Part shown: positions 17,853-34,681 of the stretch, piece by piece
How the letters are laid out: every line of letters begins with the position of its first letter
How positions within the stretch are numbered: the first letter of the stretch is position 1
NCBI RefSeq assembly: GCF_006345805.1
Contig: NC_043000.1
Span: 12,834,001 to 12,898,000 of the forward strand
Source of the DNA: Octopus sinensis
Taxonomy: Eukaryota
Length of the DNA stretch: 64,000 nucleotides
Reading direction: 5' to 3'
Position numbers and translations under genes: made by a program
Notes under the pieces: model-generated
The model's database searches: none
What the model was told of the DNA's origin: nothing
Seen by the model: the letters and a program-made list of their open reading frames with translations, nothing else

Positions 17853-17997
17853 TCACATGCATGTCTTCATGCCACTCTTCAGTTCAGGTCTGTTGTCTGT
17901 GTAGACATAGGAGAGTATTTCAAACAATTTCGCGTCTCTTCGTCTTAGATTATCTCGAGCATCCATTTCCGTTGAGCACAGCGCTGTCTGGTTACAC
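17853..17997 (-). CDS. M34/ATLF-like zinc metallopeptidase terminal coding exon
   Basis: TTTTTTCCAG| then CNQTALCSTEMDARDNLRRRDAKLFEILSYVYTDNRPELKSGMKTCM*; phase 2 fits the previous exon. Confidence 0.88.
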
Positions 17998-18108
17998 CTG
18001 GAAAAAACGAGATCATTCTTAGTGGCTGTTATTATTGTTTTGTACCATAACGCCCTGATTGAATCGACTCACGATCAAATTATTCCCCTCTTGACCATTG
18101 TCCCTGCC

Positions 18109-18151
<43 letters not shown>

Positions 18152-18156
<5 letters not shown>

Positions 18157-18438
18157 TAGTTTTATTTTTATAGCGTGCTTTCACTTCACTACCGAGCGCA
18201 GCTCTGTGTGCCTTGGGTATGTGCTGTGATTTGTTGTGATGCTCTGATGGTTATTGTATGGAAAGTGTTCTGCGTAGGATGTGTGCAGTGCCTAGTAGTG
18301 CAATTTTCTGTATGTTATATGTGTTTGTAAGTCCTGGTGTTTTTGTTATGTATTTGTCTGAATATTTTTTTATCATGCCTAATGCACCTACTATGATAGG
18401 AATTGTTTCTGTCTTTAGATTCCACATTCTGGTTACCT
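18152..18438 (-). mobile_element. RLE-type (R4/Dong-like) LINE 3' fragment in (TAA)n
   Basis: WNLKTETIPIIVGALGMIKK...IQKIALLGTAHILRRTL*; second copy at 28292-28478. Confidence 0.8.
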
Positions 18439-19319
18439 CTTATTATTATTATTATTATTACTATGTGAGAGAGCAGTGCATGCCATCAAAGTGGGGTAAA
18501 CTATACGAAGCCCAGTATACCCACCATGACTACCCGTCTGATAAGGCACATGCATCACAGCCATGCGTGTGCGACATGGTGATCTCATATCAAGATAAAC
18601 AGCACATGACCTTACAGGTAGGGTCCAGTTAGAATTTTCTTCTGGTCGAGTAGCCCATCCCGCTCAAAAGGTCCCTGAATAAGGATTGTTTAAGGATGTT
18701 GAACGAACCACCCATTAAATTATATGTAATACGTTAAATCCCTTTATAAAAATAATAATAAAGCATATAGTATAATTTAATTTCTCATTATTGAAACGAA
18801 AAAGAAGAATATTTAATCAGTTTTGTGTAAATATGATGAAATTCCCCTGTCATTTTATTTATCCCTTCAGGGCATGATGTTAACTCACAAACATGTTTCT
18901 CCTCATGCATTTAGCATTACACCCTGAAGGGATGAACAAAATGACGGACCTTTCATCATATTTACACGAAACTGTTTGATTAAATATTCTTCTTTTTCCT
19001 TTTCTTTTTTTCTTTCTTTTTTCTTTTTGCCAGTTGTCAACTTGAAAATTGAAGACTGACGACATCATTCTATTAATGTGGGAACACTGGTTGCCCTCGT
19101 TCAAATTTTAAATTTGAATTTCTATAATTTTGAATTTCTATGTATCACTTTTCATTCTGAACTCGACAAAGACAGGCAAGTTGTTGAAATATCGTTCAAC
19201 CAATAAAATATCTAATGCAATCGCATCACACTCTTCGTATTGTCTATTAATCTTTGTGAGGCGTTACGTCAATATCTTTAAAATATTATTATTATTATTT
19301 TATTATTACTATTATTGTT

Positions 19320-19680
19320 TTACTTCTCAGAGCGTTCGGTCTTGTTTGCTCCGGTAGATTATGTGAGAGCGGACATTCAACATCCAAGTACCGATCTCAA
19401 AATCCTAGTTGTCCCCAGCAGAGCAATTTTGGGGTCTTGCTCTGCTCTCATATCAATTTCGATTTCTCTGACATATTTCTCGAACTTGGTTGTTAGTGCT
19501 CTGAGTGCCCCTACAATTACTGAGATGACAGACACTCTCTTCATAGCCCACATTCTTGCAATTTCGTCTTCTAGAAGTCTGTACTTTTCAATCTTATCTA
19601 GTTCTTTGTCACTTATGTGTGCATCCCCAGGTATTGTAATATCTATAATCTTGGTTTCCTTTTTTCCTTTATCTATCACA
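19320..19680 (-). mobile_element. RLE-type (R4/Dong-like) LINE 3' fragment in (TAA)n
   Basis: IIDITIPGD...KELDKIEKYRLL..EIARMW...VIVGAL...KIALLGTTRILR. Confidence 0.82.
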
Positions 19681-19681
19681 A

Positions 19682-19732
<51 letters not shown>

Positions 19733-19879
19733 ACGGTGAGCTGGCAGAATCGTTAGCATGCCGGACAAAATGCTTAACGTTCTGAGTTCAAATTCCGGCG
19801 AGGTCGACTTTGCTTCTCATCCTTTCGGCGTCGATAAAATAAGTATCACTGGAGCACTGATCGATATAGGAAAACCATC

Positions 19880-19913
<34 letters not shown>

Positions 19914-20123
19914 TGTGTGTGCGTGTGCGTGCGTGTGCGTGCGTGTGTGTGTGTGGAATAAATACTTTAGTGTGCGGTCACACATACGCGTGTAATTCTC
20001 TGACGAGGAACTTATTCGGGATTTACAGTCAGAAATTAATGTCTTTCTTGGTCCTAAAGCGGAATTTTAATATTTGCGATACAGTTGTAGCAATGGTGTA
20101 TATTTATAACGTTATATACTTAC

Positions 20124-20272
20124 ATGTTCATTTTACCAGCAGCGTACGTGAGCAAATTAGATCGAAAAAAGGCCCCAGTACCTTCTGCCCAATATTCTTG
20201 GGCATTGCTCATAGCATAGGCCTTCAGTTCCCAAATACTATTCTTTTTAGCATATTGGTAAGCTTCGTAAAT
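20124..20272 (-). CDS. M34/ATLF-like zinc metallopeptidase exon carrying third zinc ligand
   Basis: TTTCAG|...|GTAAGT; IYEAYQYAKKNSIWELKAYAMSNAQEYWAEGTGAFFRSNLLTYAAGKMN(M); absent from the ORF track. Confidence 0.92.
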
Positions 20273-31794: not shown

Positions 31795-32372
31795 AAACAA
31801 AATTTGTAATAAAAGATATAACTAGAACACGGCGTATTCAATGCAACATATATACACACACGCACATTTATACTAAAAATGCGTTGAAAAGGACATATTT
31901 TAAACTTCGTTAAGGTGAACGACAGCGAAAACTGTCCTTGGTCAGTGAGTGCTCCAATATGCACTAAAATTCATTCAGTAAAACGTTTTTATACGAAAAC
32001 TTTTTTCTGTGTGTAAACTTCTCAGTAATATATGATTTTCTCTCTCTTTTAAATATATGTGTGTGTAAAACTCACCTTGTGAAAGCAAACATTAATATTT
32101 TTAGAGTAAAACAGTTATATGAAAACATTTGTGATGTGAAAATATATTTTTGTATTTTTACCTTTGTAGTAAAAGATATATTTACCTCCTATGTTAAAAA
32201 ATAAAAAAAATTCTTTTATTCAAATATGTGTGGTTCTAGTCGATTAAAGGTGGTGTTTTTAGTCGCATTATAGATGCTTTTCAAATGGTCTATCTTTCCT
32301 GAATATCTCTAGTCTGATTTCCATTCTCCTTCTTTATTTTCTGCTGACCAGAACATACACACACACAATGTA

Positions 32373-32435
<63 letters not shown>

Positions 32436-32436
32436 A

Positions 32437-32509
<73 letters not shown>

Positions 32510-32599
32510 ATATATCTATATATATATATATATTTAAATTTATTGCATTTTGAACTCTTGCTTGTTATTTTTCCTATATATATATACTTATACATATAC

Positions 32600-32647
<48 letters not shown>

Positions 32648-32743
32648 ATATAAACATGCATATATGAATAATGAAAGTGAAAATGATATGCATATTACAT
32701 TTAAATATATGAGAATAACAGAAGTTAACAAGATTGGACCTAC

Positions 32744-32882
32744 TTTTTTGTGCGCCAGCTTTGACACCAGACTGCTTGCTAGAACTTCGAGTCTCGGTGG
32801 TGGAACATCATGCCAGTGTATCTCTCCACCATATGTGATATAAGCTGTGGAGAAGTGGGCATCGGACCTTACTTCTTCAATA
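32744..32882 (-). CDS. M34/ATLF-like zinc metallopeptidase exon
   Basis: CACAG|...|GTAGGT; IEEVRSDAHFSTAYITYGGEIHWHDVPPPRLEVLASSLVSKLAHKK. Confidence 0.82.
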
Positions 32883-33884
32883 CTGTGGAAGTGAAAACGA
32901 GAAGAATTGTTCAACACATTATAGAATATAAAAATTAGATAATTATTTTAAAATGTATGCACACACACACACTCACACACACATTCACACATACACACAT
33001 GTACACACATATACGCACGCGCGCGCACAAAGAGACATGATTTTTGTATATTTTGGAAAGATCTCTCATAAAAGACTCAATGCAAATTTGTGTAAGCTGT
33101 ATCAGTACGTATATATGGCTGTATATTTATCTATCCATATACATATATTGTTTGTTTTTATGCATGTGTGTATGTGTGTGTATGTATGTATGTATGTATG
33201 TATGTATGTATGTATGTATGTATGCATGTGTGTGTGTATGTATGTATGTATGTATGTATGTATGTATGTATGTATGTATGTATGTATGTATGTATGTATG
33301 TGTGTATCTATCTCTTTCTCTCTCTCTATAAATATATTCTGTGTATGTATGTATGTGTGTATGTATGTATGTATGTATGTATGTATGTATGTATGTATCT
33401 ATGTATGGTTTTTAATATAACTGAACGTAAAAACAAGCATTATATATATGTACACACACACATATATAATGGTGGGTGGAAGTGAAAGGTGTGAACTCCA
33501 CTCAGGAGGCAAATAAGGAGAAAGGAAATTAGATTAGAGATATTCGAGAAAGAGAGGCATTGCGAAAAGCATCTATAATGCAACTAAAAAATACCCCCTT
33601 CAATCAAACTCATATTCATAGAAAGCTGATATTACTTTACCTCAGATTTTCTTTGCATGTTCTTATTTCAACATTTCTTCTCTTATTTTATCTACTTAAT
33701 TTTTACACCTACTTTTCCTTCTTACCCCAGTTTTTCCTTTTCTCATCTTCATTATTCCATTGACAGAGGTTAATTTCCCTTAATTGTATTTGGTTTCCAT
33801 TCCCTCAGCGTCAATTTACAGTGTTTCCCCCAGCATCTTTATTATCTCTATTGAAACAAAGTTGCTTCTGAGGACGAGTTTGTA

Positions 33885-34085
33885 GTGATGCCATTTTGGA
33901 AGTCTTCAGTGCGCATGCGCAGAGTTGGATTTCTTCCAGCAGGCCGCCAGAAGTTTCCTCATGCGCATGCGCAGAGAAATACCAACAGCAAGATTTCCCG
34001 CTGTATCGAACTCTTTCGCAGCTGCAGCCGAATTGAACGGACGCGTTCTCATAGATCTCCCAAGCAAGCAAGCCAACACGTGGCG
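33885..34085. promoter_or_regulatory. CpG-rich cluster with NRF1-, YY1- and E-box-like motifs
   Basis: TGCGCATGCGCA at 33910 and 33962, GCCATTTT at 33890, CACGTG at 34077. Confidence 0.4.
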
Positions 34086-34605
34086 AAGCTACACTACGCT
34101 GGAACGAGACAGCATTTGGCTCACACCATTTTAACTATTGTGACTAGCTCCATGGCCCATGGCTACCGGTTCGCCCTGAAGGAAATATATGTATATATAT
34201 TATTGCGGATCCAGAAAAATTAATATCATTTATGCTGTTGAAGATATTCGAAGTCTTGGTTTTCCTTCGACAAATAATTTAACGTAACGGGATGAGACCT
34301 CCACCCCCCAAGTGTTCCAGACCTTACATCCTGTTACAAGTTATTCACTTGAACGGAAGCAGTAATTTGAAAATACAACTTTTTCGAAATATTTTTCATT
34401 TTTATTTCGTGTAGAGACAAACAAATCCTGAAAACCTGCAAAACTATGATAATATTTCTGTAATTTGGTGTATTTCTCAAATAGTAATGGGATTTGTGGT
34501 AAATACTGTGGTCGTTACACTTTCTCCTCGGTGCTACTTTCCAGACAGTTGAATATCTTACTGCGTCAGTCACGGCAGCAGTTCTCGTCTTTATTGCTTA
34601 CTTAC

Positions 34606-34681
34606 CTTTCTAAATATTTTACATTGTTTCTATCGTCCCAGATGTCGCTTCGGCTTGGAGGTGGCAGTATTCCCCACAGAC
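34606..34681 (-). CDS. M34/ATLF-like zinc metallopeptidase, most 5' exon found
   Basis: CTTTTCAG|...|GTAAGT; only one frame open: xLWGILPPPSRSDIWDDRNNVKYLE(S); phase 1/2 fits the next exon. Confidence 0.7.

Follow-up and report, generated by a model that had tools for sequence, protein, structure and literature searches.

Introduction

In the structures and literature covered, the characterised enzymes of the fold considered here are bacterial and highly specific. PPEP-1 (Zmp1), PPEP-2, and PPEP-3 each consist of a single secreted domain, and PPEP homologues are reported from two Firmicute orders (accessible part of PMC8610288). The catalytic set of PPEP-3 comprises His153, Glu154, His157, Tyr190, and Glu197, and in PPEP-1 the S-loop closes on the substrate as a lid, via Lys101 and Trp103 (accessible part of PMC12828418). 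A lethal-factor-like toxin domain is tabulated for bacteria only in the accessible part of PMC3482391, and lethal-factor-like transcripts of a myxozoan are mentioned in passing in that of PMC11792419. In lethal factor itself, the catalytic domain is accompanied by protective-antigen-binding and other toxin domains. Lethal factor and its Pfam family, ATLF (PF07737), presumably correspond to MEROPS family M34. Peptidase M90 is the family of the MtfA type, and MtfA is cytoplasmic. Here we describe a gene from a 64,000-nt stretch of the Octopus sinensis genome (GCF_006345805.1, contig NC_043000.1, 12,834,001 to 12,898,000; hereafter the window), lying in six exons on the minus strand between window positions 17853 and 34681. 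An original prediction, made from the sequence alone, had taken it for a lethal-factor/PPEP-like zinc metallopeptidase, possibly secreted and possibly of ancient horizontal origin. The gene is already annotated in RefSeq, unnamed (XP_036358571.1, 'uncharacterized protein LOC115210244'), and no paper that describes the animal family came up in a literature search, which did not extend to subscription papers or to supplements on bioRxiv. Judging from conserved residues and a structural model, its product is most probably an active, secreted peptidase.

Predicted fold and active site

The structural model is that of P0001, the orthologue from O. bimaculoides (306 aa), which is identical to the octopus gene product at 285 of 291 positions and whose residue numbering is used throughout. 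Built from a 110-sequence alignment, the model reached a pLDDT of 90.8 and a pTM of 0.87; it replaced a first model built from 5 sequences (pLDDT 50.3). A single domain spans residues ~50-295 of 306, with the HELGH motif on helix 189-201. A structure search over 48,161 chains returned PPEP-2 (Z 14.2, rmsd 3.1, 176 aligned), PPEP-3 (Z 13.1, rmsd 3.7, 189 aligned), and lethal factor (Z 10.0, rmsd 6.5, 213 aligned) as its top three, the M90-type hydrolase of Klebsiella, which we take to be MtfA, scoring lower (Z 8.1, rmsd 3.7, 157 aligned) and the best ordinary animal zincin, ERAP1, lower still (Z 5.7, rmsd 4.4, 140 aligned). The top ten rows of a Foldseek search with the same model were all PPEPs. 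By sequence, a mixed family profile matched PPEP-3 over most of the domain (E 5.7e-6), and its further matches were PPEP-1 (3e-4) and lethal factor chains (4e-4 to 1e-2); a single-sequence PDB search gave one irrelevant match (E 1.2). The predicted fold is that of the PPEP and lethal factor catalytic domains, as originally proposed.

The catalytic residues of these enzymes are likewise in place, as the original prediction had read them. The HEXXH motif occupies window positions 27331..27345 (minus strand; HELGH starts at 27345), YAMSN starts at 20218, and the codon of the third-ligand Glu at 20197. The window gene keeps His192, Glu193, His196, Tyr228, Glu235, and Glu239, in the motif order of lethal factor; its spacings from the second His to the Glu and from the Tyr to the Glu are 39 and 7, compared with 40 and 7 in PPEP-3 (accessible part of PMC12828418). 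Across 116 aligned family sequences, both HEXXH histidines are invariant and the Glu is present in at least 90%. The complete set is found in 46 of 57 rows of the mollusc-type clade described below and in 52 of 53 bacterial-type rows, with a Tyr-to-Glu spacing of 7 in every row scored for both (47 clade, 52 bacterial-type). If PPEP chemistry applies, zinc would be held by His192, His196, and Glu235, Glu193 would activate water, Tyr228 would stabilise the oxyanion, and the substrate would lie along the edge strand.

What sets the octopus protein apart is a cysteine-rich insert, which proved to be conserved across the clade: its four cysteines occur in 55-56 of 57 clade rows and in 0 of 53 others, the groups having been chosen partly by that loop. 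In the mixed-profile alignment the loop coincides with the S-loop of PPEP-1, and since it occupies this position, the determinants of Pro-Pro specificity are not retained. A PPEP-type S-loop, whose Lys/Arg and Trp/Tyr close on a Glu-Glu tandem, is not present in the octopus protein, in which Gln precedes Glu235; identity to PPEPs is 11-12%, and the octopus protein has extra C-terminal cysteines. A C-terminal Cys pair is present in the mollusc clade and in none of the bacterial-type rows. The four-Cys loop, probably stapled by disulphides, may act as a lid in place of the flexible PPEP S-loop, and such a lid would confer narrow specificity, probably for something other than Pro-Pro. Secretion, which had been suspected from the outset, is supported by a hydrophobic N-terminus, seen in 36 of the 45 rows of full length (a crude hydropathy test). 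The corresponding count for bacterial open reading frames, 71 of 81, was set aside because the best of several Met codons had been taken. On the combined basis of sequence, model, and analogy, the protein is probably a secreted zinc endopeptidase with PPEP-type chemistry beneath a cysteine-stapled lid. The fold would then reach into animals, in a branch that has introns, has expanded, and combines an unaltered active site with a new form of lid.

Sequence relatives and octopus paralogues

A profile search of 1.84 billion representative sequences gave 1428 matches at E ≤0.001, 51 of them at 1e-30 (the best 150 of the 1428 were listed). From 158 proteins, 44 fragments were dropped to leave 114 near-full domains for tree building; 2 near-duplicates were removed in another tree, and a smaller tree contained 65 hand-picked rows. 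All trees were quick or FastTree trees, unrooted and without a PPEP outgroup. In the FastTree, 53 of the 114 domains formed one mollusc-type clade (support 99), and all 20 of the chosen rows of this type grouped together in the 65-row tree (support 100). Most rows are nameless, and those with a name are without exception molluscs (Octopus, Argonauta, Nucella, Babylonia, Pinctada, Haliotis, and Aplysia), which bears out the earlier expectation of uncharacterised homologues in other molluscs. The Atlas cluster of the family is eukaryotic and mostly molluscan, with an ATLF annotation on 17% of its 52 members.

The closest non-animal sequences are uncharacterised bacterial proteins (23-28% identity over 58-78% of the query, E down to 1e-14). 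A genome scan found at least 554 relatives among the 600 matches listed; the 80 retained come mostly from Planctomycetota, Verrucomicrobiota, Bacteroidota, Myxococcota, and Poribacteria, and none is titled Firmicute. With an animal-only profile, this bacterial family scored up to 87 bits, and PPEP-3 and a lethal factor fragment 12-13 bits. By sequence, the nearest kin is a broad, uncharacterised bacterial family, with PPEPs further away and lethal factor further still (E 0.36 for its match to the octopus family), and this large family points to a link between the molluscan proteins and the PPEPs. Its members, which are ATLF/M90-like, share the catalytic set, lack the four-Cys loop, and lie at the far end of a long branch from the molluscs. 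Fusions to ricin-B lectin, PKD, or sulfatase domains occur in some of them and hint that the bacterial relatives work extracellularly.

The family label of the original prediction, sound as to fold, does not hold for the closest relatives. P0001 scores 14.6 bits against Pfam ATLF, under the curated cut-off of 27.4, which three gastropod clade members exceed (34.5, 35.1, and 43.2 bits). A PF07737 search of the O. sinensis genome and 14 control genomes gave no match in any of them, controls included, and is uninformative. The Peptidase M90 match is weak (E 1.3 for the window gene, far under the cut-off; E ≤0.01 in 53 of 116 family rows), the only NCBIfam match, seen in 7 of 116 rows, was weak and to an unrelated HExxH family, and none of the six exons matched Pfam when searched singly. 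Unlike lethal factor, the 306-aa octopus protein is a catalytic module alone. The protein, which would work like the catalytic domain of a PPEP or of lethal factor, differs from PPEPs in its lid residues and from toxin enzymes in its architecture, and it scores under the ATLF cut-off of Pfam.

Within the O. sinensis genome, five copies of the family are present: the window gene, one neighbour on C4, and three on C3. The neighbour, LOC115211140 (C4:12,935,000-12,947,000, plus strand), is arranged head to head with the window gene, whose exon 1 is ~66 kb away. The other four copies have the same intron positions and phases wherever these were checked around exons 3-6, and the unnamed animal record L111 has the same exon 4 borders. 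HEXXH, the Tyr, and the third-ligand Glu are kept in all five. Four residues past the third ligand, Val replaces Glu in three of the five; the window gene keeps Glu239. The five paralogues, together with dozens of molluscan clusters, some of them catalytically dead, would make a natural series for relating the lid to specificity.

Origin of the molluscan family

For the horizontal origin first suggested, we put ancient transfer from bacteria at about an even chance. Transfer is favoured because bacterial diversity is greater and the eukaryotic record patchy: apart from the molluscs, there are a type known from a protist transcriptome and another animal type, found in the brittle star Amphiura filiformis (P0161). 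In the latter protein, which has no Cys loop, the domain is of a bacteria-like version and is combined with two ShK domains and one fibrinogen C-terminal domain, as might be expected of a protein for immune recognition. Vertebrates, arthropods, and nematodes do not occur by name among the family matches, few rows being named. The gene is integrated in the octopus genome, with introns and expression. Against transfer, the mollusc clade sits on a long branch without a bacterial sister, and no donor lineage was found in the unrooted trees.

Vertical descent, by which the family would be old in animals or eukaryotes, lost many times, and faster evolving in molluscs, with no mollusc-specific transfer, is somewhat less probable than transfer. 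It would account for the echinoderm and protist homologues, for the missing bacterial sister, and for the introns common to the five paralogues and L111. Moreover, forcing the echinoderm-type rows into one group with the mollusc clade cost just 0.30 log-likelihood units, with a P of 0.478 in the approximately unbiased (AU) test (63 rows, i.e., the 65 hand-picked rows minus the 2 longest). However, bacterial diversity is far greater, to judge from the scan matches listed and the many phyla among those retained, the echinoderm and protist types have no Cys loop and branch at different points among the bacterial rows in free trees, and the three large animal groups mentioned above are not represented among the few rows that carry a name. 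The horizontal origin of the original prediction is thus plausible and does not follow from these results, since the trees are unrooted, no donor was found, and the AU test does not reject a single animal clade.

Returning to transfer, a fuller scenario would have early molluscs gain a bacterial protease of the lethal-factor/PPEP fold apart from an echinoderm gain, add introns, a signal peptide, and the stapled lid, and expand it into narrow-specificity enzymes that act in mucus and saliva on microbial adhesins or prey proteins; as a whole we consider this unlikely. If true, bacterial adhesion-switch chemistry would have been converted to animal surface defence.

One further record concerns this question. 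P0096, a Cys-loop member called as one gene on a metagenomic contig of 32 kb, begins with what resembles a membrane anchor and sits on a very long branch. A prokaryotic or viral source is possible, and the record would bear on the route of transfer; two scans found no viral relatives.

Putative role at mucus-covered surfaces

Two paralogues of the window gene are present in the skin mucus of O. vulgaris, each with two peptides (3 and 4 spectra), among the rows listed in the accessible part of the supplement to PMC10138644; the accessible main text makes no mention of them. In the posterior salivary gland, one of these mucus paralogues is represented by one peptide and one spectrum among the rows listed in the accessible part of the supplement to PMC7693380. 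The mucus peptides were assigned by mapping to the genome copies or their protein. Candidate enzymes of the family are thus already in published octopus mucus proteomes, labelled uncharacterised. Because two sister copies occur in mucus, we tentatively propose a surface or mucus role for the window gene, which we rate at rather less than an even chance. Enzymes of this kind would likely have specific extracellular proteins as substrates, at surfaces that are glandular or covered with mucus; by extension from the paralogues, the window gene product may act in skin mucus or in saliva, where its likeliest targets would be microbial surface proteins or mucus glycoproteins.

The salivary peptide also raises the possibility of a salivary or venom enzyme that subdues or pre-digests prey, and the several copies in the predatory gastropods Nucella and Babylonia would suit such a role. 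We consider it improbable. The salivary evidence is a single spectrum from another paralogue, the octopus protein has no delivery domain, and five family motifs were not found among the rows listed in the accessible part of a gastropod toxin-candidate supplement. The family is also present in grazers and filter feeders (Haliotis, Aplysia, and Pinctada), which argues against a role in venom only.

Several points weigh against an active peptidase that works at the surface. The TM-scores from Foldseek reach a modest 0.39-0.43 when scaled by query length, and the structural model is that of a 98% identical orthologue, not of the window gene product itself. In the literature covered, no activity is on record for the nearest bacterial family. 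The peptides sought for the window gene, like those of two other copies, were not found among the rows listed in the accessible mucus and salivary tables. In addition, a five-row sub-clade (P0080, P0089, P0091, P0094, and P0102) has lost the zinc ligands and kept the Cys loop; its members are likely pseudo-peptidases, judged by their residues, and because of this loss it appears that the scaffold can persist without catalysis. These five rows, the Val found in three of the five octopus copies, and the non-catalytic binding domains of the same fold among the structure matches (rows 4 and 6-8) would also agree with a binder of zinc or another ligand that has no protease function, or with a hydrolase of a non-peptide amide. 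However, the window gene retains all six residues, and the set is conserved from bacteria to molluscs; we regard such a binder or amidase as slightly less probable even than a venom enzyme.

Gene structure and transcripts

The six exons have AG acceptors (6 of 6), GT donors (5 of 5), and compatible intron phases (2, 0, 1, 0, 2), and they sum to 872 nt, i.e., ~290 codons ending in TGA. All six exon translations are exact substrings of XP_036358571.1, which upholds the exon chain of the original prediction. Exon 1 (34606..34681, 76 nt), which is actually the second coding exon, probably holds the start of the mature protein and is spliced on both sides in all four runs. Exon 2 (32744..32882, 139 nt), whose first bases form the loose contig end at 34606, encodes the opening strands of an alpha/beta subdomain. 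Exon 3 (29325..29478, 154 nt) contributes helices and a strand of the N-terminal subdomain, and its last residue is the first Cys of the four-Cys loop. The remainder of that loop, at the position of the PPEP S-loop, is encoded with the edge strand and the HELGH active-site helix by exon 4 (27292..27500, 209 nt). Exon 5 (20124..20272, 149 nt) encodes the predicted oxyanion Tyr228 and third zinc ligand Glu235, and the last coding exon (17853..17997, 145 nt), joined to exon 5 in all four runs, three more cysteines and the TGA stop.

Transcript evidence consists of assembled contigs of runs typed as RNA by prediction; these contigs carry no tissue or level, and among the runs listed as holding the gene none is recorded as RNA. 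At the joint of exons 5 and 6, contigs skip 2126 nt with CT..AC ends in all four runs (up to four studies), and the junction of exons 4 and 5 is a loose contig end in at least two of the four. Contig coverage of exon 1 is limited to 34606-34684 and joined to exon 2 in all four runs (up to three studies). The distance from exon 1 to exon 5 in the contigs is exactly 502 nt, the sum of exons 2-4 (3 runs were mapped twice, the contig being equal in length and depth). Junctions 1-2, 4-5, and 5-6 were aligned directly, and 2-3 and 3-4 through this match in length. The gene is therefore transcribed and spliced. Bacterial contamination or a chance chain of exons, which the bacterial affinity of the nearest non-animal kin might have suggested, is refuted by the spliced RNA contigs and given practically no weight, as five spliceosomal introns, orthologues in other octopods, introns common to the paralogues, and a PRP1/PRPF6 exon on the same stretch also speak against it.

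Upstream of exon 1, the splice partner in the contigs of all four runs is an exon resembling the hydrophobic leader of P0001. Searches for this exon found nothing in the window, where the first intron takes up 34682..64000 (minus strand) as far as the edge, in C4:12,898,001-12,958,000, or with two genome-wide patterns; a 100-N assembly gap at C4:12,910,502 may conceal it. The start exon first put forward, 39431-39470, had to be abandoned, since the RNA contigs splice exon 1 elsewhere, to the signal-peptide-like exon. A start at 39569 in an older gene model has no hydrophobic leader and is likewise unused by the contigs. The first exon of the RefSeq model (C4:12,899,398; L013:1234-1398) has neither family homology nor a hydrophobic leader and is also unused, and the start of that model is probably wrong.

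Within exon 1, the assembly has T at window position 34636, where all four RNA-type runs have G (plus strand), giving Ala and not Asp. Ala is the state of O. vulgaris and O. bimaculoides; the discrepancy may reflect allelic variation, a difference between species, or a mistake in the assembly.

Neighbouring features

Downstream of the gene, on the same strand, lies an exon of a PRP1/PRPF6 splicing-factor gene (5196-5393, minus strand; Pfam PRP1_N, E 1.2e-21), and a second exon of that gene is probable at ~9288-9350, judged by eye. Since the first of these is on the same stretch, the locus sits in animal DNA. The first intron of the peptidase gene contains a minisatellite at 37104-39308, with a period of 119 bp, 18.4 copies, 92% matches, and a strong G skew.

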